Shown here one piece after another: positions 8,021 through 61,667 of a stretch of 64,000 bases of DNA. Position 1 is the first letter of the stretch. The number at the start of each line of letters is the position of its first letter. The DNA is taken from NCBI GenBank assembly GCA_951406725.2, contig OX597820.1, forward strand, positions 43,896,001 to 43,960,000. The letters run 5' to 3'. The notes beneath the pieces are model-generated. The model was not told the origin of the DNA. It did no database searches and saw only the letters and a program-made list of their open reading frames with translations. Both the position numbers and the translations under genes were made by a program. Origin of the DNA: Octopus vulgaris. Lineage: Eukaryota.

Positions 8021-8057
8021 TGCAAGCTGCTGACATATATGTTCTTATGTGATATAA

Positions 8058-8830
8058 GGCGGCGAGCAGGCAGAAACGTTAACACGCCGGGCGAAATGCT
8101 TTGTGGTATTCCGTCTGCCGCTGCATTCTGAGTTCAAATTCCGCCGAGGTCGACTTTGCCTTTCATCCATTCGGGGTCGATTAAATAAGTACCAGTTACG
8201 CACTGAGGTCGATATAATCGACTTAATCCGTTTGTCTGTCCTTGTTTGTCCTCTCTGTGTTTAGCCCCTTGTGGGTAGTCAAGAAATGTGTATTTCGTCT
8301 GTCTGAACGTTCTGAGTTCAAATTCCGCCGAGGTCGACTTTGCCTTTCATCCTTTCGGGGTCGATTAAATAAGTACCAGTTACGCACTGGGATCGATGTA
8401 ATCGACTTAATCCGTTTTTCGTCCTTGTTTGTCCCCTCTGTGTGTAGCCCCTTGTGGGTAGTAAAGAAATAAGTATTTCGTCTGTCGCTACGTTCTGAAT
8501 TCAAATTCCGCCGAGGTCGACTTTGCCTTTCATCGTTTCGGAGTCGATAGATTAAGTACCAGTTACGCACTGTGGTTGATGTAATTGACTTTATCCAATT
8601 GTCTGTCTTTGTTTGTCCACTCTATGTTTAGCTCCTTGTGAGTAGTAAAGAAATAGAAATAGGTATTTCGTCTGTTTTTACCTTCAGAGTTCAAATTCCA
8701 CAGAGGTCGACTTTTGCCTTTCATCCTTTCGGGATCGATAAATTAAGTAACAGCTGCGTTACTGGGGTCGATCTAATCGACTGACCCCTCCCTAGAAAAA
8801 ATTTCGGGCCTTGCGCCTAGAGTAGAAAAG
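8058..8830 (+). mobile_element. Meta-domain tRNA-SINE (family A), nested tetramer
   Basis: One full tRNA-like head (GGCGGCGAGCAGGCAGAAACGTT...GAGTTCAAATTCC), then four Meta-like domains (GGTCGACTTTGCCTTTCATCCTTTCGGGGTCGAT..AAGTACCAG) 182-190 bp apart. The last unit has a different tail. Confidence 0.9.
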
Positions 8831-9013
8831 GTTATGTGATATATATTAATAATACAGTTTACTTAGTGCAAACATAGAACTCAATATGTTGGGTAGAATG
8901 GGTATATATGTCTATCATATCAAATGTTAACAGTCTATAGCTGTTACAATCGCGCCGGTTCCCTTTACAGTCAGTTTTCTTAAATTATTATAATCACTAC
9001 GGAAAGAAGTATA

Positions 9014-13935: not shown

Positions 13936-14332
13936 AACTCTCTTTCTATTGGCGATAAATTTAGAAAATTTAGAAAATAAAATCAGAATATACATAAATA
14001 CATGATGATTATATAATATTCTGGAAACGTGTTAAGAGAAATATGACGCCAGTAGTCTTAAACTCGTATATTCAGAGATAAACACGTATAATTCAAGATA
14101 AACAGTTATCATATGAAGAAAGATAGGAATAGAGATCAGCAACTCTATAAAGATATGAAGATATGAATAGAGATCGGACTTTCACGTATAAATAATATTC
14201 AATACAGGCTACACGTGATAAAACCACATAAATCTCACACATATAAAACTGCGCCTTAGGAATGGTCTTCACCATTAACGACACTAACATACATGTGCAC
14301 ATATAAGCAGAGAGAGAAGAAAATAAAAGTGT

Positions 14333-14407
<75 letters not shown>

Positions 14408-14410
<3 letters not shown>

Positions 14411-14532
14411 TCTGTGAATCTGTGACGGAATTGTCGGCAATTATATCCACATATATACACAAGTCCGTTACTAAAATTACTTGCATCAATGTAACGACAT
14501 ATATCAAGTGTGTGTCTGTGTGTGTGTGTGTA

Positions 14533-14592
<60 letters not shown>

Positions 14593-14691
14593 ATCTGTGA
14601 ATCTGTGACGGAATTGTCGGCAATTATATCCACATATATACACAAGTCCGTTACTAAAATTACTTGCATCAATGTAACGACATATATCAAG
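14408..14691. repeat. Direct duplication of a ~100-bp unique segment plus (TG)n, period 183 bp
   Basis: 14409-14508 is identical to 14592-14691 by eye. Confidence 0.9.
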
Positions 14692-17299: not shown

Positions 17300-18990
17300 C
17301 AACTATCCCCACGTAGTGAGTTGTAATATATATAAGAAATTAAAAAAGGAAAATACGCACACTTACATAGTTTTAATATAACTTTTAATATATCGACCGG
17401 TTTCGCAATCGCTATTTATAATATTATGTTTTATTTATTTGAAAATGTATTTTTTCTGAAGAAGAAATTTTGTCCATGTTGTATGTGATGAAATCCACGA
17501 GCAAATGACTTCACAAGTAGATAAATAAGGGGGGGGGGGGGTTAATTGGTTATCGCTATTATTGTTATTGTTGGTGTAAGAGAGATAACTGTTCAGCTTT
17601 CGGTAATGGGAAGGGAATATATATGTACAGACAAAACAAGTTTCGAAAAGCTTGTTTAGTGAGGGGATTTATGCACAGTGATGTAATCGTGAATTAAGAT
17701 ATGTAAAAAGATAAAAGATGGTTATGCGTGCATATTAAGGCGTGTTCTGTACTTGTCAATGAAAAAGTTTCTTTATTTAAACGTTCTTGTGGAGATATTG
17801 TGTCTTTGCACTGATAGAAGGGGAAGACTGTGAAATTTAGTTTGATGTTATCTGCACATTTTCCTATATGTTCACTGAGAGGAATTTGCCTGTATTGCGG
17901 GAAGCGGATTTGCTCTTTATATAGAGTGGTTCTCTTTCTCAAAGTCATACTCGTTTGTCCAATATAGTAGTGTCCGCAGCCCGAGCAAGTTTTTATATAA
18001 ATTAGGTTCTCAGAGGCACAAATGAAACTAGTTTTAATTGTGAACCTCTGTCTTTGTTTGAAAAGGAAATCCGAGCCTTCAAGAAGGTTGGGGCAGGTTC
18101 CACAGTTTGGGCGTCCACATTTTTCAACTGTTGGTTTCGTGGTTGTTTTGTCAAGCTTCGTGTTTGTTAGTAGTCTCTTTAGCGATTTGTCTTGTGCATT
18201 TGATGAGTTTGTGTGTTTTGAGGATGTCATTCATTTTTGGATCTCTAGTTAGTAAAGGAAGAGTTTGCACCATAGTGTTGAATGCCTCACTGTTTCTGGG
18301 GTTGTGTGTTGATATAAATAGTAATGTTTTGAGTTGAGGTGTGGTGATTTGTTTTGTTGTTCTTAGTGTTTTTGTGTCTAATTGTTTGGTACGTTTAATT
18401 ACCTCGTCAATAAGTGAGGGTGGGTATTGTTTTTCAATAAGCGCTGTTTTGAGGTCTTGAAGACGAAGGTCCCAAGTTGTTCTATCAGATACTATTGTGC
18501 AAATCCTTTTTGCCAAATTGAAAGGGATATTTATTTTGATATGTTTCGGTTGGCATGAGTTAAAGAGGAGATATTGTTTTGAATCAGTTGTTTTATAATA
18601 GATGTCAGTTACGATTTCATTGTTAACTTTTTTTATAAAGATGTCTAAAAATGGGAGTTGTTCTGTGTTATATTCCATTGTGAATTGAATGTTACTATTT
18701 ATATCATTTAGTGTTGATTTGAAATCCAAAAGTTTGTCGATGTTCTCCTCCCAAATGATAAAGCAGTCATCTAGGTATCTCTTCCAATTTTCTCTTATGT
18801 AGAGGTAAAATGGGTAAACATATTTCTGAAGTAATACTTCATATAAGGTGAATTAAAAATAACCCATTATTAGGTTCGCAAGAACAGGAGCTGCTTTCGT
18901 TCCTATCTCAATTCCGCAATTTTGACGATAGTATGTGTCATCAAATAGGAAATAATTGTTCTGAAGTATACATACGGGAGTAATATCTTT
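17300..18990 (-). mobile_element. Penelope-like retroelement, 5'-truncated RT + GIY-YIG endonuclease pseudogene (Neptune-like Cys linker)
   Basis: RT motifs YYRQNCGIEIGTKAAPVLANLIMGY, WKRYLDDCFIIW, IQFTME..LPFLDI and TDIYYKTTDSKQYL; linker KCGRPNCGTC; endonuclease NLIYIKTCSGCGHYYIGQTSMTLRKR. Frameshifts present. Confidence 0.93.
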
Positions 18991-24830: not shown

Positions 24831-26011
24831 GATATAAAGAATGAACTCTCAGATTATATTTACATTTTAGGGCGAGCGCTGTCTGATCTTTATAGTAAAC
24901 ACTGACTATGTACAAATGCTTTACGCTATTAGATGTCGTCACAATCACTATTGTGCTCATGAAAAATGTTTGCTGTTCAGAAATTATATTTCACATATGG
25001 AAAAAAAAGAATTAGTTTCCTGTCTGGCCAAAGGTAATTTGCATATTTAAAAATAATGAAAAAACAAACGAAATAACTCGAGGCCAACGGCATGAATTTG
25101 AATAATTTCAAAATACCATGAATAAATTCTTAAGTTAATTTACATGCAAGCAAAAAGAAGACCTGATCGCTGTTGTAAGCAAGAGATGACTATGTACATA
25201 TGTTTTAATCTGTTACACCTCGTCAGCAATAACACAGTTTCGGCATGTATTGTGATTAGAAGGAATTACAATTTTGTGTAAACAACTGAATACAGGCATA
25301 TATATGGTGTATTCCAGACGTTTTGAGAGGAAACATTTATTAATTTCACAGAAAGTACAAACCACTGATCTACTTCCAAACAGGATCCGCTTACTTAGAT
25401 GCACTTGTGGTATCGCTCCAACCACTTCGTGAAGCCCCATGCAAACCTTCTAAAGTGAAGGTATCCAGGTCTCCTATCACCGCCTCTTTCGTCTTCACAC
25501 ACACAGACACACAGGCACAGTCATAAAACTTACATACTGAGGGATAATCAAGCAGAGAACTCCATTGATAAGAAATTATAAAGACTAGAAGCAATCCAGG
25601 AACCAAGATGTATTGTTGACACACCAGAGTGGGCTAGGTTTATTGGATAGCCAAGCGGGGATTAGAGAGTTGTACGTAAAATAAGATAAATGGATTATTT
25701 AAACTATAGCCCATTAGTAGAATGAATTTGTATGGAAGGCGGTGGAGGAAAAGTTCAACTGGTTTCAGAGGCGAAAGCTATAGAAGTCTGTGGTATTGTT
25801 AATATTATTGCTTAAGAAGATGGTATTATTAATATTATTGTTAAGCCGACATTGCCTTTCATCCTTTCGAGGTCTATCAGATTGTTAATATTATTATTTA
25901 AGGTATTATTAATATTATCGTTTACGGAAGGCGGTGGAGGAAGAGTTAAACTTCAGCTGGTTTTAGAGGCGAAAACTATAGAAGTCTGTGGTATTATTAA
26001 TATTATTGTTT

Positions 26012-26650
26012 AAGGCGGCGAGCAGACAGAATCGTTAAGCACGCCGAGCAAAATCCTTTGCGCATTTGGTCTGTGCTTAAGTTCTGAGTTCAAATTCTGC
26101 CGAGGTCGACTTTCCCTTTCATCCTTTCGGTGGGGGGCAGGTTGATGAAATAAGTACCAGTTGCGTACTGGGGATCGATCTAATTGACTGGCCCCCTCTC
26201 CAATAATTTTGGGCTTTGTGTCGAGAGTAGGAAAGAATATTATAAGAGGAAGGCGGTGAGCTAGCAAAAAGGTTAGCACGCCGGGCAAAATGCTTAGCGG
26301 TATTTCGTCTGTCTTTACGTTCTGAGGTCGACTTTACCTTTCATCCTTTCGGGGTTGATGAAACAAGTACCAGTGAAGTACGGGGATCGATGTGATCAAC
26401 TTACCCCATCTCCACAAATTTCAGGCCTTGTTTAAGGCAGTGAGCAAGCAGAATCGTTAAGCACGCCGGGGAAAATGCTTAGCGGCATTTCGTCTGTGCG
26501 TACATCCTGAGTTCAAATTCCGCCGAGATCGACTTTGCTTTTCATCCTTTCGAGGTCGATAAATTATGTACCAGTTGATCACTGGGGTCGGTATAATCGA
26601 CTTACCCACTCTCCTGAACTTGCTAGCCTTGTTACAAAATTTGAAACCAT
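26012..26650 (+). mobile_element. Three head-to-tail complete family A SINE monomers (tail type B)
   Basis: Heads at about 26013, 26252 and 26436, each with a Meta-like domain and a GGCCTTGT-type tail. Confidence 0.85.
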
Positions 26651-27493
26651 TATTAGTATTACTGAAAGTGCAAGTTTATTGAGAATAAATATATAAAATA
26701 GAGCGAACTATAACATATAAGGATATTATGAATAAAGTAATAATGAATAATAAATACTATAATAAAAAAATGATGAGAAAATAAATCTAGTGAGGTAAGT
26801 ATATAAATTTAGTTTAACTTGTTTTTCATTATAATAGGTGTTCAGTAAATAATAAACCAGGAAACACTTGACGTTGTTTATTTAATAATTTTGCTGCAAG
26901 TGAGTAAATATTACATAAGCTATAAGCCAAGTGTAGAAATACGAATTAAAGAAGTTGGGGAAGAATCTACGAAAAGAACTATGAAGAAATAAATAAAACA
27001 GAATAAACGAATGTAATGATAGGTTACTTAAATCCAGGAACATTTCAGCTCCCCCTTCGTATCAGTTTCTATATACATTCCCTTACTACAAACTAGTCAC
27101 TATCTACACTCATGGACCCACAACTCTATACTTCCTTCATATCATCATATATAATCTGATGGCCTTTTACTTATATCTACTTTTATTTTCAGCGACGGTA
27201 CTACCAACTTCTATCGTCATTTGCCATGGATTTTCTGAGATACCTCAACAATGGATCTGCTAACTGACAATATCTTGTACTATGGTTCTCTTTAATCTTT
27301 TCATCGTAGATCTACTAGCTGATGTTATGTTTTACTTTAGACACTCAATGAACTGTTAAACAATAATTTAAGATCCGTGTACTTAGCTATTCTAGAAACA
27401 GCTGTAAGAGACTTTGCCTTCTGTCTAGTCAACCTTTGTGGCATGATTCACTTCGATATGCATCGATTCTTTATGGATCTCCTGTAATCAAGA

Positions 27494-27752
<259 letters not shown>

Positions 27753-30700
27753 AAGTTTCTTTATTGGCCACACAGGGCTGCACACAGTTGGGACAAGTTA
27801 CAAGGTAGAGCTTTTCTTTTGGGGGTATGAAAAAACAAAGAACAAAAAACAAAAGAAACAAAAAAGTGGCGTAGGTTTTCGATCAAAAGGGATCGTAAAA
27901 GGGAAAAAAAGGAAAAAAAGGAAAAAAAAAAGGAAAAAAAAGAAAAAGAAACAAAAGACAAGAAAAAGGAAAAAAGAAGAAAAAAGGAGGAGAGGAAAAA
28001 AACGATCAATATGGATCGTGTATCACAGAGTCATGATGTACGGTATAAAGGGGGAAGCAGATAAGGTTTATCCGTGGGAAGAAAAGCCTACGAAAAAGAC
28101 CAAGGTAACCTCGGTCAATATTGTTATATGTTACCACATTTGTTTGCATGTGGGTAACCCCCTGTTTTCAATTTCTGGATTCATAGGATTATGCTCAAGG
28201 TGGCTTCGTCATTCGTCATCCTTGCTACATTCACCCATCTTTTTTTAAAACATTCGCTAGACAAAACTTGCCTCTCTACTCTCACTTTCCTTTTCAAGTG
28301 GTACTTGAAGAAGTTGATGAGAGATTGACCAGAGAGGAAAGTGTTTGTCTCCAATCCTTTCAGACGCGTCCACTAGATTCTCTTGCCATAGCCACAAGGA
28401 TGATGAAAATAGCTCTTCCTTCCCGTTTGAAGGAAGGAGGGGTGACAATATTGACGATAGACTCGGCTGATAAACCGACTCGTCCCACACGTGACAGCAG
28501 TTGTTCGACATAAGCCCACAGGTCGGAAATTGTTGGACACTGCACGAGTGCGTGCAGAACGGTTTCGTCGCTCTGACCGCATCTCGGGCAGGTCGGCCCC
28601 GTGTTTCTCGAGCCGTGTCTATAGAGCTTATCCCGAACGGGTAGTGCTTCTCGGTAGCACTGCCAGGCCAGGGATCTCTGGAAGTTGTCCATGGGCCCTG
28701 GCCCGAAAGTCGTCCCGAACAGGCAGGTCAGGTATTCCTGGTCGACGTCCAGGTTCGCCCCGAGCTCGTCGTCGTACTTCCCCTCCACTAATCCCCTATA
28801 GAATGCTTTGGTTGTGATGGAGTCACTCAAGGTCGACCCAGGACGGCAGAGTTGCTTGAGAGCAACGCGACACTCGCGGTGTCATTCGCCTTTCCTCGGC
28901 CTCTTTCTGATCCACGACTGCAGTTCGGTCATAGAGACGAGCTGCGGGAAAGCGTGCCTCACAAACGGCGACCACACATGTTCACCGTCGTCTACGAAGT
29001 GCCTGAGATGTCGCAGTCTCAGCGCGTGTCTGCGCATCATCAACCACGGCATGCGCAGCCCTCCTTTTAACGGGTGTTGACAGTAAATGGATCGCCTGAC
29101 CATCGGGACGCATCCTTTCCACAAGAAGCGAAAGAGAATGCGTTCTAGTTTGGTGATGGTAGGGTCGGGACAAGGCACGACGGTCAGGCGGTAGTAGATG
29201 ACGGACGTGATGTACGTGTTCGCCACCCCCGCCCGACCTTTTAGAGACAGTTTCCTCTCGGCCCATTGCCGGGCGGGAGTGACCACCCTACTCATTATCT
29301 CGTTCCAGTTCTTCTCCACTTGGAGGTCCAGACCGAACCAGACCCCGAGCAACTCGACCGGACCGTCGGTCCAGCGTCCCACGACGGAGGCGCTGGTGGA
29401 CGGCATGGGCTTGCTTCTCTAGGTGCCTAATCGCAAGACCACTGACTTTTCCCGGTTGATTTTTGCTCCTGTCGCCGCTTCGTAGTTTTTCAATGTCTCG
29501 CCGACCTGCTCGATGTGCTCGTGGCTAGACACTATGACGGTGACGTCGTCCGCGTATGCAGACACGCTCGTCCCGCATCCCAGTTCTCCTGGGATGCCCC
29601 TCAGAGTTGCCAGCTTCCGCAATAATGGCTCGAGAGTCAATACGTATAGAAGCGACGAGCTGGGGCATCCCTGACGGACCGAACGTGCGATGTCGAAAGG
29701 TCTCGATAGATGTCCATTTACGCGAATTACCGAACGGAAGCCTCTGTACAAAGCGGCTATCCAGCCGCGAAAGACGGGACCGAAGTCAGCCGCTCTGAGG
29801 ACAGCCTCCAAGTATCGATGGTCCACCCTATCGAAAGCTTTCGATTGATCCAAATTGATCAGCGCCCCACCCATGCCAGGTTCGTTAACTACCCTGTCTA
29901 TGATGTAGCGCATCATGGTCCGGACCGGCTCGGCGCACGTTTGCGCCTTGTCGACCAGTTTCTCGATGACAAGCGCCAACCTCTTGGCTAACACCTTGGC
30001 CAAAATTCTCAAGCCTGCATTAAGCAGAGTGATGCGCCTAAAGCTATCTATTACATTTCCCTTGTTTAGATCTTTCTTCAGCAGTGTTACGGCTCCTCGG
30101 CTCACAAAACCAGGAATGCTCCCGTTTTGCTGCCAAGACGTCTCCTAACAAGTCTGGAATACAACTGTAAAGCTCGTAGAGTAGACCATCCAAACCCGGC
30201 GATTTGTCACTCGAGCATTCTGCCATCGCGTTCTGCACTTCCGCCGCCGTGATGGCACCTTCGCAGCACCCTGCCTCTCTTGTCGAGAGTCGTGGTAGGC
30301 TGTGTAGGTAGGCATTGAAGTCCATCCTACGTTCTTGCCCGCCACTCGTCCCGAACAGTCGGGCAAAATGCTGTTGAAAGGCCTCACACATTTTACTTCG
30401 CTCGAGCAATTCGCGCCCCTGTTCATCTACCAGAGACCGAATGGTGGCTTTGTTGCCCTGTTGCGCCTCTGCCAACCGGGCCTCTCTCGCGGCTCCAACA
30501 CCTTCATTCCTGAGAGCACGCATCCTAGCTCTGACAGCACACCCTTAGTGTTTGGCGTTGAAGTGTTGGTCGAGGGCCAACCTCGCCGCCAAAACATCGG
30601 ATGCGATGCCGCTTCTAATTGCCTCTTCTAGCTTCTTAACTAGCTCACCCTCTACTCTATTTCTATCTATGGCTAGTGCTTTGCTGTACCTAATCGCTTC

Positions 30701-31652
30701 TGCTTTTACTGCTCTCTTGAGAGCAAACCACCATTTGTTGTTGATGATGGCTCCCGTCAAAGCCCTCTTTACTAGTATGCTAATCCGGTCTCTGAAAACC
30801 TGTCTCGATGGGAAAGACGCGTTTAGTTTCCAGTATCTGGGACCCTGCCTAAGTGTCTTACCTAAGTTTAGCGTACATATCACAAGTTTGTGAACCGTGT
30901 AGCTGACTATGTGTAATTGTGGACATCCTATGCTATCTCTATCTACTGTCCTACACAGTATCCTATCTAGATACGACCTCGACGACCCGATGCGGTTGCT
31001 CCATGTCCACGTTGGCGCATTCGGGTGGTCTAGTCGAAAAGCGCACCCATTGCTGCCGTCGACATCCAGGACGACCAGTCTACCCTCCGGGTCTACGAAT
31101 ATTGTCTTTACTTTGAGATCCAGACTCTTGCGAAAAAGTACCGCGGTGCCACTACCGCCCATTCTTGGCAGACAGGAGGGAAAATAACTGTTGAACTGTC
31201 CGCCAAACATGGTCTTTAGGGTCCCCGGATTGTGGGGTCTGGTCTCACTTATGGCTATGATTTCTAACTTGTGTGACTTTATGTCACTTAAGAGGTACCC
31301 TTGTTTCCAAGGGGACCCCACGCCACGCGCATTTACACAACCAATCTTGATCATAATCCTAATGAATTAGAATACAAGTGAACAGAGGGTTACTTACTGC
31401 TCGAAAGTTTTTGCTTTCTCCTCCTTTGGTTTGTCCTCGAGGAGATCCCAGTAAAGTTTCTTTGTGAGATATTTTTAGCATTTACCAACCGCACTGGGGA
31501 AAATGCCTTTGAGTCTGTGTTGCAGACTTTTGGAGATGTGTAATATTTTGATGTGGTCTGGTGGTGTTGTGTATGGGTGATTGTTTGTTTTTATGTCATC
31601 TTCTGTAATGTTTGTTTTTGATTTGATGTATTCCATCAAATTTGTGTTTTTG
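27753..31652 (-). mobile_element. Tx1/L1-clade non-LTR retrotransposon, 5'-truncated and decayed
   Basis: GC-rich island containing the end of ORF1, ORF2 and a 3' UTR ending AATAAAGAAACTT directly before (TATC)n. (GATA)n on both sides. Confidence 0.93.
28181..31354 (-). pseudogene. LINE ORF2 (APE endonuclease, RT, C-terminal zinc finger), frameshifted with internal deletions
   Basis: Endonuclease MIKIGCVNARG..IAISET..TWTW..SRSYLDRI; KSPGLDGL; RT FRRITLLN, LDQSKAFDRVDH, VRQGCPSS, AYADDV; LSLKGR; zinc finger CPRCGQSDETVLHALVQC. Confidence 0.92.
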
Positions 31653-39899: not shown

Positions 39900-40687
39900 T
39901 ATTTATTTATATTTATATTTATATTTATATTCATATTTATATTTATATATACATATATATGGGTATGTGTGTGTGTGTGTCGACATACATGCATGTTATG
40001 GATTATAATTAAGATTTGACAAAAGCTTTATGATATAGCATAAAAGTAGTTATTTTATTTTAAAACACGTATTTTGGAATATATTGTTATTGCATGCTGC
40101 GTTGTGCATGCCAGAGATGATACATAGTTGAACTTAAATTTTGCATTTTTTGGACGACATATTTAAATAAATGAATTATTAAATAAGGTTTTATCTATAG
40201 ACATGACTTCAATTATTTTCAACATGGTAAGCGTAATTGCACATAATGTACTCGCGTACTCACATTCGAGTAGGAGGAAAAACAGAATCACAAGTAATCA
40301 CACACACACACACACATATACACTCATTTGCGCATATATACATGTTTACTATGGTTTCTTCTTTCTTTTCTTCCTCTTTGTTACTTATCTTCGAGATTTT
40401 TCATATATTATAATTACTTGAGCTTATCGTGATATGAAGTTTTGGGATCAAAAACTTGTTTTTTTTATAATTTTTTTTTTTGTTTTTTTTGGAGAAGCAG
40501 AAAACCACGAATTCATCGCAGGTATGTACAAGGTATGACGCAAGGAGATGGCTGATATTTGTTTTTAATTATTAATTATCGATCCCTCTTGTAGGTGGGT
40601 TAGGTTCTGTTTTAGGGACAACTTACTTTCGAATGTTGAAGTTAGCTTCTCTACAATCTCCACCCATACTACAAGACTGTTAATATA

Positions 40688-40892
40688 CTTTTCTACTCTA
40701 AGCACAAGGCTCGAAATTTCAGGGGAGGGGGACAGCCGATTAGATCGACCCCAGTACGCAACTGGTACTTAATTTATCGATCCTGAAAGGCAAAGTCGAC
40801 CTCAGCGGAATTTGAACTCAGAACGTAAAGACAGACGAAATACTGCTAAGCATTTCGCCCGGCGTGCTAACGTTTCTGCCAGCTCGCCGCCT
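40688..40892 (-). mobile_element. Family A SINE monomer (tail B) with ~17-bp target-site duplication (TSD)
   Basis: TACAAGACTGTTAATAT (40670) and TACAAGTTTGTTAATAT (40893) flank the element. Confidence 0.88.
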
Positions 40893-40921
40893 TACAAGTT
40901 TGTTAATATTATACTATAAGA

Positions 40922-41510
40922 AGGCGGCGGGCTGGCAGAAACGTTAGCACACCGGGCGAAATGCTTAGCGGTATTTCGTCTGCCGTTACGTTCTGAGTTC
41001 AAATTCCGCCGAGGTCGACTTTACTTTTCATCCTTTCTGGGTCGATAAATTAAGTACCAGTTATGCACTGTGGTCGATGTAATGGACTTAATACCTATGT
41101 CTGTCCTTGTTTGTCCCCTCTATGTTTAGCCCCTTGTGGGTAATAAAGAAACAGGTATTTCGTCTGTCTGAACATTCTGAGTTCAAATTCTGCCGAGGTT
41201 GACTTTGCCTTTCATCCTTGTGGGGTTGAATAAATAAGTACCAGTTACGCACTGGGGTCGATATAATCGACTTAATCCGTTTGTCTGTCATTGTTTGTCC
41301 TCTCTGTGTTTAGCCTCTTGTGGGTAGTAAAGAAATAGAAATAGGTATTTCGTCTGTCTTTACGTTCTGAGTTAGAATTCCACCGACGTCAACTTTGCTT
41401 TTCATCCTTTCGGGGTCTATAAAATGAGTACCAGTTGACTACTGAAGTTGATCTTATCCACTTACCCACTAATCCGAAATTTCTGGCCTTGTACCAAAAT
41501 TTGAAACTAA
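40922..41510 (+). mobile_element. Family A SINE nested trimer
   Basis: One head, three Meta-like domains, junctions AAAGAAA(C/T)AGGTATTTCGTCTG at about 41150 and 41340. The last unit is more diverged and has tail B. Confidence 0.9.
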
Positions 41511-41789
41511 TATTATAATAATATTATATTATAAAGCACACCGGACAAAATGCTTAGCGGCATTTAGTCCGTCTTTGATTTCTGAGTTCAAATTCCGACA
41601 ATGTTGTATTTTGCCTTTCGTCCTTTAGGGGTCGCTGAAAAAAGTGACTGTTGAGAATTGGGGGGTTGATGTAATCGATTATCCCTTTAGCCCCAGAATC
41701 CTAGGCCTTGTGTCAATAGCAGGATGGATTATATTATAAATAAGGTGGTTAGTTGGCAGAATCGTTAGCTAGCAGGAAAGATGCGTTAT

Positions 41790-50768: not shown

Positions 50769-51778
50769 TATACATAGATATTTACGCACAGAAATAAATA
50801 TATGTATAGAAATACATATATAATAAGTATAAAAGTATATATATAATCTACGCTTATACGTGTGGGTGTACACAAACCCTCCATCCATACGTACATACAT
50901 TCACACATGTGTATCGTTCTATTTAGATACATTATAAACAAGTTTTAAGCCTAAGCCTAATCCTCTCCTCTTAAATATGGCTGCCAACATTTGCATGGAT
51001 TCATTTACACTGACTAAAGATCTGTATTACAAGAACCGGCAAAAACAAATTTGCCATTTTAACAACTTCTTAATCTCCCTAATTTCCAACTAATCCACTG
51101 CGTTTATCCGTTTCTTTCTATCATTTGATTTGTACTTGTTTTTGTTTTTGTACTGTTTCTGAGATGATTTTCTTCGTATCTGTTTCTCTGTGTGTGTAAA
51201 TGTGTTGTTTGTTTGCATATATGTTCTCTTATATATATGTGTGTGTTTATGCTTGTACACATGTGTGTGTGCGAGAGAGACAGAGAGAGAGAGCGAGAGT
51301 GTGTGTATGTGTGTGTTCGAAAATACTCATAGCGCTGTTAGTTAATCATTTAACTTGTTAAATGCAACGAAAATTTGTATGACAAGATTAATTTTCTCGA
51401 GAGGATTAGTTACTATTAACTTGTATTTAGTACAATAAGTTAGCAAAATGAATCAGCAACGAACTTAAATATTTCTCGCAGTATTTAGTTTTAGTTTCCA
51501 TGCTCTGCGATCCGGGTTCAAACTGTTCTCGGATCGATATTTCATTTTTTCTAAGCCCGATAAAGTGGTATTCGTATTGCATGTCATGCGTAAGACTAGC
51601 AATGTTACAGTGAAAAGGGAGGAAAAAAAGGCAAACGAAGTGGGTGGGGGCCTCCACCTCAGAGTGGAATGACGTTTTCTGGTCAAAACCATTTTAGAGA
51701 AAAAGAGATGGGGAGAGATGGAAGCTAGCGAAAAGCATTGCCCACGACAGGAGGGCTATTCAACAATGGCAGCAGCGA

Positions 51779-51838
<60 letters not shown>

Positions 51839-51878
51839 ATTTAAGCCCAATACTGAGGGTTGTGGGTTTCTTGGTACC

Positions 51879-52320
51879 TATTTCTTTACTACCCTCAAGG
51901 GGCCAAACACAGAGAGGACAAACAAGGACAGACAGACAGATTAAGTCGATTATATCGACCCCAGTGCGTAACTGGTACTTATTTAATCGACCCCGAACGG
52001 ATGAAAGGCAAAGTCGACTCAGAACGTAACAGCAGACGAAATACCTATTTCTTTATTACCTACAAGGGGCTAAACACAGAGGGGACAAACAAGGACAGAC
52101 ATAGGTATTAAGTCGATTACATCGACCCCAGTGCGTATCTGGAACTTAATTTATCGACCCCGAAAGGATGAAAGGCAAAGTCGACCTCGGCGGAATTTGA
52201 ACTCAGAACGTAGCGGCAGACGAAATACCGCAAAGCATTTCGCCCAGCGTGCTAACGTTTCTGCCAGCTCGCAGACGAAATACCGCTAAGCATTCCGCTC
52301 GGCGTGCTAACGTTTCTGCC
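51879..52320 (-). mobile_element. Family A SINE with a younger copy nested in its head, flanked by a 14-bp TSD
   Basis: GCAGACGAAATACC at 52032-52045 and 52271-52284 flanks a near-full-length copy at 52046-52270. The rest of the host head lies at 52285-52320. Confidence 0.88.
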
Positions 52321-52615
52321 ATCAAACCCAATACGTTACTGTTACTTCATCTTATTGACTCCGGACGAATCGAAGACAAAGCTGACCTCAGAAAGGCAAG
52401 ATTATACAAATACCGCAAAGCATTCTATTCTGCTGCTGTAACGATTCTATAAATCCACCACCACTGTCAACATACTGGAATCGTACTTTTATCGGGATTT
52501 TTACGTTATATCAAATCCTTTGAGTTACACCAATTCTTATTCTAAAGTAAAAATTTCATTAAATTTTATTTCAGTTGTTATTGGGAAGAAATCCTGCTAA
52601 ATAGTTAATATGTTA

Positions 52616-53830: not shown

Positions 53831-55075
53831 TCACTGGTAGCCATTCACACAATGTATTAAGCAACATTACATAAATATTTCGGCTGGCATGGGAATATCT
53901 CAAAAATGTTATACATAACGCTAGATTCGTTCAACATCAACTTCCATTATAAATAAATTTCTAATAAAAAAGAACTCTGTGAATACATAGACATGGTTCT
54001 GTGCTTAACAAGTGAGCTTCGCAGGCTACACGATCCGAGTTCGAAAACGTTCTAGGAAAACCAAACATATATCTGGTGTTGTCAGCTTGACTGCCAATCT
54101 GCAGTTAGCCCTAGAGGAAGATGGAAATATATTTGGCCTCATGAGTGCACTACCTTTAAAAACACACAGTGGTTGGGTCCTAATAACTTAGTGCCTATTG
54201 TATATGTGTTTCTAAGTAATATCCTATTTTTGTGTCCTAATTAGATATGAACGTCGAAATTTAACATACTAAAATAACTTCTTTTGCCTTTTTTTTAAAT
54301 TTAAATTCATGATAAGTCTTATAGGTTGAAGATGACAAAGTATTAAAGAAGTTCGTTTCCTAAATTCGAACCCATTGCGTGGTATCTTCGGTAAGTACCA
54401 TTTTCTATTGAGTCTATACATACTTTGTGAGTGATGTTAGGTAGACGGAAACTGAAAAGAATCCCAGTGGATTGTTCCAGTAATCGAAAAGGTACAGCTT
54501 TGTCACACATTGTGTCATACTCATTTTGACTGGGAATTACATTAAGGGTACCTAAGGGTCTGTGGAATACTCAACTACTTGCTCATTAATACAGGTACGC
54601 GTTATTCAGTTGATGAAATGACCAAATCCCTATCATCAAATGACGGAGACTACATACACACTCCCATCCAACCCCCCCCCTCACACACACACACACCTGG
54701 GGTTTTTTTGGCAAGTTTTATTTCAGTGTTCCCTGGATTCTGACTTTATTACCTGCTGAGGTCAAATCCGCCTTTCAAGTCTTGAGAGATCGATGAAAAA
54801 TGCAGTGGATTGACAGAGCTGTAAAAACACTGAACAGGATGCTTTGCAGCACTTGTTCCAGCCCTTTACCTTCTAAATTCTATTGGGGGCTATGGCATAA
54901 TCCGTCCCCGGGTTGAAGACGCCACCCGGCATTCGGACCAGTTTTGCGATTTCAACATACCTTCTTACTTTCCTCCGACCAATCTCAAAGCCTTTGTATG
55001 GGGTCATAAACACTACATGATTTCCTAACTAAAAGATAAAAAAAAAATACTTGGACCGTTACTTCTCATAAGAAT

Positions 55076-55713
55076 ATTGGTTTCAAATTTGGGCACAAAG
55101 CCAGCAGTTTTTTCTTTTTTTCGCGGAGTAAGTCGATGATATCGACGCCAGTCTTCTACTGGTACTTATTTTATTGACCTCAGAAGGATGAATGACAAAG
55201 TCGACCATATCGGAATTTGAAGCCAGAGCATAAAGACGAACGAAATGCCGCCAAGCATTTTGCCCGATGTGCTAATAATCGTGTCAGCTCGCCGCCTTAT
55301 TTCTAATAAGAATATTGATTTCAAATTCTGGTACAAGGCCAGTAAGTTCGGAGTAAGGGATAAGTGGATTACATCGACCTAGTACTCAGCTGCTACTTAT
55401 TTTATCGACCTCGGAAAAATGAAAGGCAATGTCAACCTCAGCGGGATTTGAACCCAGAACGTAAAGGCAGACGAAATGCCTATTTCTTTACTACCCACAA
55501 GGGGCTAAACACAGAGAGGACAAACAAGGACAGACAAACGGATTAAGTCGATTATATTGACTCCAGTGCGTAACTAGTACTTAATTTATCGACCCCGAAA
55601 GGATGAAAAGCAAAGTCGACCTCGGCAGAATTTGAACTGAGAACGTTACGGCAGACGAAATACGGCTACGCATTTCGCCCGGCGTGCTAACGTTTCTGCC
55701 AGCTCGCCGCCTT
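55076..55713 (-). mobile_element. Family A SINE cluster: monomer plus nested dimer
   Basis: Monomer at 55076-55298. Older tail-B unit 55312-55480 joined at CAGACGAAATGCC|TATTTC to a young tail-A unit at 55481-55712. Confidence 0.88.
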
Positions 55714-56500
55714 ATTTCACATAATGAATGTTGCGATTTATTCGAGTGCGGCTTCAGCTATCCTTAGAAAATAAGGATTTATTGGGGGTGAGGAGTGAAA
55801 GACAGGAACAAAACCAGTCGGATGTCAAAACTTAGAATATTCAAAACAACACATTCGCTGCACTAGAAAAAGGCAAAAAGAAAACAAAAAAAACAAACAA
55901 ATATATTCTATAGAAGACATAGCTGAGACTGTGTGACATTCATGGCCTTCTTAATGGGAAGAATGCGAGCAATTGACGTAAATTCACTTTCTACTTGGAT
56001 TAGAAACCGTTTTGTGAACTTAGTTGTAAATCTACCACCCTCAACACATACAGCAAATAATATTTAAATCTGTTCAACGCATTATGGACTGAAATATTCC
56101 ACTCAGGTTATCAAAGGTATTACTCGTTTAGCATTACAGCTAAATTATGGAAATTCAATAACATTAATAGTATATGTATGTTTTGCATATTTACTTTCCT
56201 TTCATACACACTGATCAATTTGCACGTGCGGTAATAAATGTAAATGTGTCTATATGATGAAATCGCTTTATACCTATCGAAATCTTTCATTTCATCTTTA
56301 CTAGGCCCAGCGGTAAAATTACTAAATTGATGTTTCCAATTGGTCAATCAGCCATTTATGTGTCGACGTTCTAATGTTATAAACAGTTAGCTGAAATGAC
56401 AGTATATTAAAAATGTGATTCTATTAGGAAATGTGTATTTGTGTTAGTCTGAGTGTGTAGACTATTTTGTCTATTTTCATAAAGCTTCCCGTTATATATA

Positions 56501-58334: not shown

Positions 58335-59870
58335 TCTCCGTTTCTGGGATATATCAAGTGATAGGCTAGCATGTCTGTACATTAGGTATTCCGACATCAG
58401 AGACAAAGTGAGTATGTATGAAAGTTCGAGACAAGGAAATTCACAGTGCATTAGAAATAAAATAGAATAAAGAGTAAAAGTAGATAGAATACAGACAGAA
58501 TACATCTTTAGATTCTTCCATAGGTTCAAATGCAAGCAAAATCAACACACATAACACTTGCCTATATGCATCCACGGTTGTTACAATATGCGTACATTTT
58601 TCCATTTATTTCTCTTCTCTATCAACATGAGTATCTTAGAAGCTATATAGCTTTAATTCTTTTAATTTAACTTTTTAATTCAACTTTTAACCTTTAATTT
58701 TTATTTTAGTTAATTATTCATCCATTTAATTGTTGTCTTATACTATATATGCCCCCTTAAGCTAGGCAGCTATTTTTAGCTATCCCTACTGACCGCTGAA
58801 CTAAGTATTCTCTCTGACCACACCTAACCTAGAATTAATCGACATAAATACCTTCCTCCTTCACTTTACCAAATCCTTATACCTATTTCTTTATTACCCA
58901 CAAGAGGCTAAACATAGAGGGGACAAACAAGGGCATAGGTATTAAGTCGATTACATCGACCCCAGTGCGTAACTGGTACTTAATTTATCGACTCCGAAAG
59001 GATGAAAGGCAAAGTCGACCTCGGCGGAATTTGAACTCAGAACGTAATGACAGACGAAATACCTATTTCTTTACTACCCACAAGGGGCTAAACACAGAGA
59101 GGACGAACAAGGACAGACAAACGGGTAAAGTCGTTTATATCGACTAACTGGTATTTAATTTATCGACCCCGAAAGGATAAAAGGCAAAGTCGACGTCGGC
59201 GGAATTTGAACTCAGACGAAATACCGCTAAGCATTTCGCCCGGCGTTCTAACATTTCTATCAGTTCACCGCCTTACATTTCTACCAGCTCACCAAATCCT
59301 TATACCCTAACCTTTCAATCGACACTTTCGAAGAATAAACTGGTATCTTATCGCTATCTTTATATTTTAGTTGTTATCTTTTACTTTTGATTTTTGAATT
59401 TACTTTCGCTCTCATTCCTTTTTCCTTCAACCATCCCATTCCTTTTTTCTCTCTTTCTCGTCTCTCTTCTATCCATTCGCTCACAATCCATTTCTGTCTA
59501 TCTTGATGATTGTCTTTCTCACTCTATATACCCACGTGGACCATTTACATGCTAGCTAACCACTTAATGCATTACATCAACATGAACGCATCATTCAAAA
59601 TACTACCAAAATACTGCCTGGATTTACCTAAGGATCTATACCTTCACGAAAGTACGGACAAATCTCCACACACTCTGAAAAATGATGAACTGTGAACTTC
59701 ATTCTCCGGTTTATGTTCTTCTATCTACTTTTACCCTTTATTCTACAATTTTATTCCTTATAAACTGCAAATTTTCCTGTCTAGAACTTCCATACATATT
59801 CACCTTGTCTCTGACGATCCAGTGGATGGACATGCTAGCCAATCACTTGGCAAATCCCAGAAACAGCAGT
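58335..59870. mobile_element. Pair of inverted ~170-bp homologous segments with hammerhead-like cores (probable PLE termini)
   Basis: The reverse complement of 58340-58500 aligns with 59700-59865; CTGA(C/T)G(A/T)...ATCCCAGAAAC occurs in both. Confidence 0.6.
58884..59290 (-). mobile_element. Family A SINE nested dimer with 16-bp outer TSD
   Basis: ACCAAATCCTTATACC at 58868-58883 and 59291-59306; two Meta-like domains. Confidence 0.9.
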
Positions 59871-61040: not shown

Positions 61041-61362
61041 CGAGCTGGCAGAAACTTTAGCACGCCGGGCGAAATGCGTAGCCGTATTTCGTCTGCCGCT
61101 ACGTTCTGAGTTCAAATTCCGCCGAGGTCGACTTTGCCTTTCATCCTTTCGGGGTCTGTTAAACAAGTACCAGTTATGCACTGGGGTCGATATAATCGAC
61201 TTAGTCCGTTCGTCTGTCCTTGTTTGTCCTCTCTGTGTTTAGCCCCTTGTGAGTAGTAAAGAAATAAGTATTTCGTCTGTCTTTAAGTTCTGAGTTCAAA
61301 TACCGCCGATGTCGACTTTCTCTTTCACCCGTTCGGGAGCTGTTAATTTAAGTACCAGTTGC
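61041..61362 (+). mobile_element. Family A SINE nested dimer
   Basis: Young tail-A unit joined at AAAGAAATAAGTATTTCGTCTG (about 61260) to a diverged, truncated unit. Confidence 0.88.
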
Positions 61363-61667
61363 ATCGAACGAATTAATGTTCAATACGTTGTAATATACAC
61401 AGTTTATTGAAACTTAAAACTATTTTCAAAACGGTATTTTCATACCGCTGCAAGCGTCAGGTGAGACATTTCGCGATTCCGGTTAGCAATATATCTATAT
61501 GCATTGACGTAGGTATGATTTCATAAGTTGCCTTAAGATCTTGTGCACCCATAGACGAAACTCGGAGTCATGAAGTAACGAATGACAGACACAACCCAAA
61601 TACAATATATTATTAAACTCTTCTACAGTATAGAGTCTTCGTTTTCCCAACAGTCAAAACTAAACAT

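Follow-up and report, generated by a model that had tools for sequence, protein, structure and literature searches.

The minus strand between 52320 and 52032 carries one SINE copy inside the head of another copy of the same family, with the same 14-mer on either side, which raises the question of whether these elements insert into their own kind and, if so, by what route. The window is the whole 64-kb stretch of DNA that was analysed, AT-rich and dense in microsatellites, and all coordinates refer to it. Nested insertion of tail-A copies into heads of their own family, by either of two routes considered below, is the probable answer.

A SINE copy nested in a related head

Head positions are numbered from the G of GAGCTGG (52270, position 1), upstream of which most copies carry the leader TAAGGCGGC. 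Read along the minus strand, the locus is made up as follows:

52321..52440, minus: decayed older copy of the family immediately upstream of the host head (by eye, unaligned)
52285..52320, minus: remnant of the host head (head positions 6-41) with the A-box-like motif; two differences from the majority head, neither present in the inserted copy
52271..52284, minus: target duplication of 12-14 bp, upstream copy, corresponding to head positions 42-55
52046..52270, minus: inserted near-full-length tail-A SINE copy, subtype A2 by unit alignment
52048..52094, minus: LINE-like final part of tail A, from comparison with the LINE end in the window
52032..52045, minus: downstream copy of the target duplication
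51879..52031, minus: remainder of the host, tail subtype A1, B-box-like motif lost through a 17-bp deletion
51875..51878, minus: GGTA opening the non-SINE flank; no left-hand duplication matching this GGTACC flank (at 51878) was seen

The layout from 52320 to 51879 bears out the preliminary description of a near-complete copy lying between two 14-mers in a host head. The inserted copy (225 bp, GAGCTGG...AAAGAAATA) has GGTATTTCGTCTGC on both sides and its own copy of this 14-mer at 52229-52216. The 14-bp duplication reported earlier is present, with a length better given as 12-14 bp, since its final two bases (GC) also match the upstream leader of the element. Of all units in the window, the inserted copy has diverged least, with 3/118 body positions off the A majority. 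Each of the two heads at 52216-52320 departs from the majority head at two positions, none in common, and a recent 55-bp duplication of the head was rejected because no derived change is common to both. The host remainder carries C at position 55, as both heads do, and is the only later unit with C, which fits it as the other half of a split host.

The head appears tRNA-like, with box-like motifs TGGCAGAAACGT and GAGTTCAAATTCC that resemble, by eye, the A- and B-box consensus, although neither ARAGORN nor Rfam identified a tRNA. Rfam likewise found no snRNA match in 51700-52500, with one chance match only (E 5.6), so that the U1/U2 snRNA-derived head of SINEU elements is not found here. The promoter boxes of the old copy, proposed earlier to be separated by the insertion, are indeed parted at this locus, but the B-box-like motif of the host is deleted in any case (17 bp). 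Each array in the window keeps a complete A-box/B-box head at its start, and the promoter therefore passes to the newcomer instead of merely being divided. An almost identical deletion of the B-box-like motif (16-17 bp, between GAG repeats) occurs in two unrelated copies (52018-52019 and near 26325). Beyond the host tail, the flank at 51779-51878, which terminates in (ACT)20 when read along the minus strand, may itself represent the 3′ end of a different retroelement.

Tail-A arrays and the bases beyond their tails

Twenty-two SINE units from the window were aligned. Tail A, which ends in AAAGAAATA and has two subtypes (A1 and A2), is found in 11 of them; the other 11 have tail B or tail C or are truncated. 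The elements are short, dispersed, multi-copy and non-coding, with head, body and tail, as is usual for SINEs. Tail-A units are confined to six arrays, each opening with a head, behind which come 184-bp units beginning at head position 42 (Tandem Repeats Finder periods, 167-184 bp). The five arrays other than that at 52032-52320 are:

8056..8840, plus: head, three tail-A units and a tail-B host
40921..41520, plus: head, two tail-A units and a tail-C host
55305..55716, minus: head variant GCGTAGCCGTA, one tail-A unit and a tail-C host opening with GGCA
58868..59306, minus: two-unit tail-A array (59290-58884) in non-SINE DNA, with 16-bp duplications at 59306-59291 and 58883-58868
61041..61400, plus: head variant GCGTAGCCGTA, one tail-A unit and a truncated host opening with AGTA

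Subtype order varies among arrays (A1-A1-A-B, A2-A1-C, A2-A1, A1-C and A1-A2), and the array at 58884-59290 also begins at GAGCTGG. A duplication had been claimed at a junction shared by all arrays. The junction itself is shared, at least one tail-A-to-head joint falling at the same base in 6/6 arrays, whereas a host head, duplication and full copy are visible together in only one of the six.

Tail-B and tail-C copies at 26005-26660, 41520-41730 and 55065-55310 are also arranged head-to-tail, but through AT-rich tails joined to whole heads, unlike tail A. Two family copies lie head-to-head about 40 bp apart (40680-40885, minus, and 40921, plus), and joints of this kind were also seen in public contigs. 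Elsewhere in the window, a 183-bp tandem duplication (14327-14691, 97% identity) includes a GT microsatellite, and two frames at 17694-18852 (minus), which gave no Pfam hit, resemble by eye parts of a Penelope-like element, namely its reverse transcriptase (RT) end and its nuclease of GIY-YIG type.

The 11 tail-A ends are followed by GGTA (seven), AGTA (two), TGTA (one) or GGCA (one). Nine continue as a family head from position 42, and the other two adjoin non-SINE DNA that starts with GGTA, at 51878 and, as GGTATAAGG past the array 58884-59290, at 58883; both of these GGTA flanks had been noted in the preliminary description. In one reading GGTA is simply the end of the tail, and arrays arise by DNA slippage or unequal crossing over between the GGTA of a tail and that of a head. 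This would account for GGTA after 7/11 tails and for the Tandem Repeats Finder periods, and unequal recombination has been proposed for reptile SINE-derived satellites (PMC10702118). The array at 58884-59290, however, is flanked on both sides by a 16-bp duplication starting with GGTA (13-16 bp, as GGT also fits a leader variant), and the target therefore already contained GGTA when the element inserted. The tail at 55480 is followed by GGCA, the form seen in tail-C heads, whereas the head of the copy in front reads CCGTA; the downstream bases are therefore those of the host. Neighbours within arrays are not closest relatives, and arrays end in other subfamilies. GGTA as SINE tail, with multimers formed by recombination, had been named in advance as an explanation that would overturn nested insertion; duplications and unit divergence within the window contradict it, and we consider it very improbable. 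AGTA, found twice after a tail and again in the solo copy at 40844, is what CpG decay of the C-G in the head would produce.

Target-site duplications of the kind left by SINEs are present at 58868/59291 (16 bp) and 52032/52271 (12-14 bp). Lengths agree between 52032/52271, 59290 (13-16 bp) and a tail-only unit in the public run X22 (13-14 bp).

The duplications and the GGCA at 55480 uphold that part of the earlier proposal in which GGTA belongs to the target; GGTA alone cannot give the bias towards heads. GGTA occurs at 306 of about 128,000 positions, and both non-head ends would fall at such sites by chance with a probability of ~6e-6. Family heads make up no more than 19 of these 306 sites (at most 6%), yet they received 4/6 first insertions (binomial P=2e-4) and 9/11 ends (P=7e-10, assuming independent events, which multimers moving as units would break). 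A bare GGTA preference is therefore insufficient and was rejected; a longer match is needed.

That longer match might be read by the endonuclease alone, as a site of roughly TTAG(C)/GGTAT present in many thousands of heads, with no pairing of RNA, in an arrangement like that of Tx1-Mar and SINEU. TTAGC precedes GGTAT in the head and GTTAG precedes it at the non-SINE site 59306, the upstream side being readable at only this one non-family site. The endonuclease is said chiefly to set target choice (PMC4494074), and all evidence for nested insertion fits equally. Against this, heads opening with AGTA or GGCA have been hit while both non-family sites are exact GGTA, as pairing further along would permit, and we regard the endonuclease-only route as possible if somewhat doubtful.

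Local tandem duplication was rejected. Divergence between tail-A pairs is 12.4% within arrays (n=6) and 10.6% between arrays (n=49), and in the tree two supported groups (88/90 and 93/97) each join units from different arrays; units of one array are thus not the closer ones, as they would be in a SINE-derived satellite. The four end hosts (all non-A) diverge by 13.6-21.8% from the A majority, compared with 2.5-11% for the 11 tail-A units, and by 11-20% from the non-A majority, a rough figure as this majority mixes subfamilies. Unit divergence and the more diverged end hosts together argue against local duplication. In 4/4 arrays with more than one A unit, the divergence of the front unit does not exceed that of the units behind it, a weak trend. 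Position 55 is C in 5/5 first units and T in 4/5 later tail-A units (Fisher P=0.048), a pattern that plain stacking at the front end does not predict.

Founder multimers might instead have spread whole as read-through RNAs, or concatemers might have formed in one event by RT jumping between RNAs that start at a predicted hairpin loop in the head, the 55-bp head repeat then being a 5′ re-copy. A single pair of duplications encloses the whole two-unit array at 58868-59306, and two changes are common to both head pieces at 59290, which is what re-copying of a template would produce. The second units at 8289 and 41154 cluster (88/90), T at position 55 correlates with the rank of a unit in its array, and position 42 is the first base past the loop. 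This account is nevertheless unlikely: unit order and subtype vary among arrays, the hosts at array ends show greater divergence and fall into three kinds, tail-B and tail-C hosts lack the LINE-like tail, the heads at 52216-52320 have no derived change in common, and GGTA at both non-family flanks is left unexplained.

Tail-A junctions in public sequence data

Four public runs out of 24 listed, labelled as other organisms (X4 as B, X11 as C), were compared with 52019-52290. Contigs matching in X4 and X11 numbered 449,641 and 226,111; figures for these two are partial counts and summed contig depths rather than copy numbers. In X4, depth was 8.2M at 52034 (12 bases past the tail) and 26.8M at 52053 (31%), and in X11 it was 0.29M and 1.75M (16%). 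Calibration on 10 of the window's junctions (all but that of the reference itself) gives rough shares of tail ends joined to heads of 38-55% (X4) and 14-24% (X11), against at most 6% from the share of GGTA sites, which suggests a junction with a head at very roughly 15-55% of tail-A ends in these two other samples. For comparison, PMC4494074 recognises a target where it holds >20% of copies; the share is 9/11 in the window and, roughly, the values just given for X4 and X11. Joints reaching back ~180 bases show several host types after the tail. Loose ends in X4 included at least 1017 tail-to-head joints and at least 1077 ordinary head starts, partial counts that give no usable fraction.

The junction with a visible duplication is rare in X4, with a depth of 9.1e3 at 52279-52288 compared with 1.7e7 at 52259-52268, or at most ~0.05% of head depth; depth at 52279-52290 is an upper bound to which misplaced head pieces may contribute. 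The raw runs X21 and X22 held only 15 and 219 matching reads. In 66 of the X22 reads (compared with 52033-52099), a unit of ~79 bp consists of GCTATTTCGTCTG and tail A alone, representing either a truncated copy enclosed by a 13-14-bp duplication or an internal deletion that ends at the same place. The unit may belong to a small satellite that arose from a truncated insertion.

A tail-A 32-mer had no matches in metagenome contigs, and a 25-mer from the body had none in genome and viral contigs. The body 25-mer matched one metagenome-contig locus (L001, 545-769), behind a different tRNA-like head on a contig that stops before any tail; the central domain, represented by this 25-base motif, is thus common to a SINE of another organism.

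Candidate LINE partner, predicted head hairpin and proposed route of insertion

A partner LINE sharing the 3′ end of tail A had been predicted, and the window contains a LINE with a similar terminal 50-mer, the exact partner not being found within the window:

27756..31652, minus: decayed LINE with APE and RT, L1/Tx1 group, lying within (TATC)n, the last 50 nt resembling tail A

The LINE encodes APE (PF03372), RT (PF00078) and zf-RVT (PF13966) domains. Its APE before RT, C-terminal zinc motif and L1-group RT are those of the Tx1 clade. It appears to be of L1/Tx1 type, as assigned by domains and best matches. The nearest solved structure to its RT is L1 ORF2p (63.7 bits), with R2 barely lower (59.4), and among named sequences its best matches come from Argonauta hians (63%) and Acanthosepion pharaonis; no named Tx1 sequence was among the matches. 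The last 50 nt score 48-56 against three tail-A copies (best of 300 shuffles, 38-39) and 20-24, no match, against three B/C tails, so that a 3′ tail shared with a LINE, as is typical of SINEs, is found for tail A and not for tails B/C. Both ends finish at AAAGAAA. Because only 36-39/50 columns match and the LINE sits in (TATC)n rather than at GGTA, it is a relative of the likely partner and not the partner itself. Tail A was likely captured from the 3′ end of a site-seeking LINE of L1/Tx1 type, and an R4/Dong partner, at first considered, was dropped for tail A once the end of this LINE was seen to match it. The LINE itself is possibly from a microsatellite-specific family.

L1-Tx1 is listed among coleoid LINE families (PMC8967140), and elements of the Tx1 clade often choose microsatellites or other repeats, with site-specific examples in Tx1L (in Tx1D), Keno (in U2) and Kibi and Koshi (in microsatellites) (PMC4494074). 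Like Kibi and Koshi as described there, the window LINE (APE-RT-zfRVT) lies in a microsatellite, and it also has a tail-A-like end. The closest parallel to the arrays is SINEU-3 of crocodilians, moved by Tx1-Mar LINEs, for which one site in another repeat and tandem copies sandwiching the target-site duplication, read as sequential insertions, are reported (Kojima 2015, PMC4494074). The octopus SINE shares the strong bias to one repeat site and the tandem copies around a target duplication, but the target of SINEU-3 is a Mariner DNA transposon and its head is from U1/U2 snRNA, whereas the octopus SINE targets its own tRNA-like head; every new copy therefore supplies a further target, and seamless joins become possible at the 5′ end. 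Zepp/ZeppL, L1-type LINEs of green algae, likewise nest in their own copies and build tandem arrays (PMC8226300). These are autonomous LINEs with 5′-truncated copies joined as 3′ ends at centromeres, in contrast to a non-autonomous SINE in short dispersed arrays with one fixed base in the head.

The literature searched, with most subscription papers, Repbase and Dfam outside its scope, did not describe any SINE with its own head as target, nor these octopus arrays. The novelty suggested in the preliminary description holds to that extent for own-head targeting, while the general habit is in print for SINEU-3 (PMC4494074); an own-family head as target is a new twist on known site-specific retroelements. 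OK, OR1 and OR2 are abundant tRNA-derived SINEs of octopods, and the window SINE appears to be of this general type. OR1 and OR2 (Ohshima and Okada 1994) are cited as octopus tRNA-derived SINEs in PMC4824008 and PMC4758252. Bivalve MetaSINE alignments in PMC4824008 look, by eye only, unlike the window SINE.

A hairpin is predicted in the RNA of the head:

52216..52245, minus: predicted RNA hairpin, 5′ arm at head positions 26-37, loop at 38-41 and 3′ arm at 42-55 (z -3.5 for 52190-52270)

The stem has 12 pairs, its 3′ arm equals the duplicated 14-mer and the insertion point (position 42) is the first base past the loop. This coincidence may be due to chance, may reflect a guide for the enzyme or may hint at template switching. 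As the duplicated 14-mer is also a hairpin arm, it is on its own weaker as direct proof of insertion. The locus had been put forward as direct evidence for self-targeting; it is real, but it is one locus, and its junction reaches at most 0.05% of head depth in X4. Neither tail A nor the LINE end is predicted to fold beyond shuffles (z -0.3 and +1.8).

For the route itself, repeated target-primed insertion by a partner of L1/Tx1 type, in which pairing of read-through RNA lifts heads above other GGTA sites, has in our judgement an even chance of being correct. The nick made by the partner enzyme would fall immediately before GGTA, the two strands being cut about 13-14 bp apart. A copy inside a head would be transcribed through its tail into RNA that continues with GGUAUUUCGUCUG; tail A has no T4 run, and T4 is absent before the first tail end in 3/6 arrays and lies inside unit 1 in the other three. 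Such RNA would pair over 4-5 bases at ordinary GGTA sites and over a long stretch at family heads, which would then be favoured. At the far end the new cDNA would itself be head sequence and would usually anneal to the head of the host, leaving a single head, no visible seam and additional 184-bp units; more rarely the ends would join without homology and the duplication would stay visible, as at 52032-52284. Pairing of this kind raises targeting in R2Ol and is required in R1Bm, and R2Ol, R1Bm and SART1 are alike in that read-through RNA matching DNA past the nick improves targeting (PMC6530143, PMC7265360). Those cases are based on experiment and concern LINEs in rDNA or telomeres, whereas for the octopus SINE we only infer it. 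Against the read-through route, structure-guided template switching could yield the same ends at the hairpin-arm 14-mer.

A further step, which we think doubtful, is that the family behaves as a homing SINE with its target written in its own RNA. On either side of a nick at the hairpin loop, read-through transcripts would base-pair with the family head, and young copies would overwrite old heads and take over their loci and promoters. Each success would supply a new read-through source and a new target, and the choice of site would be inherited through SINE RNA and not only through the endonuclease.

SINEs are the largest repeat class in octopus genomes, with about 40% of repeat content (PMC8967140). 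If a subfamily prefers its own kin, copy counts, divergence ages and consensus models will be skewed, since many apparent copies will combine a young front part with an old rear part. The case would show how a SINE can be redirected by exchanging its tail for that of a site-seeking LINE, and the system offers a natural test, at very high copy number, of RNA-target pairing versus endonuclease choice in the landing of non-LTR elements.

Variant heads at 55707 and 61041 stand before different hosts, which suggests that the head of the newcomer replaced that of the host. Both alter the two partners of the closing pair of the predicted hairpin, through the variant GCGTAGCCGTA at 55664-55676 and 61071-61083, a change that hints at selection on the RNA fold.
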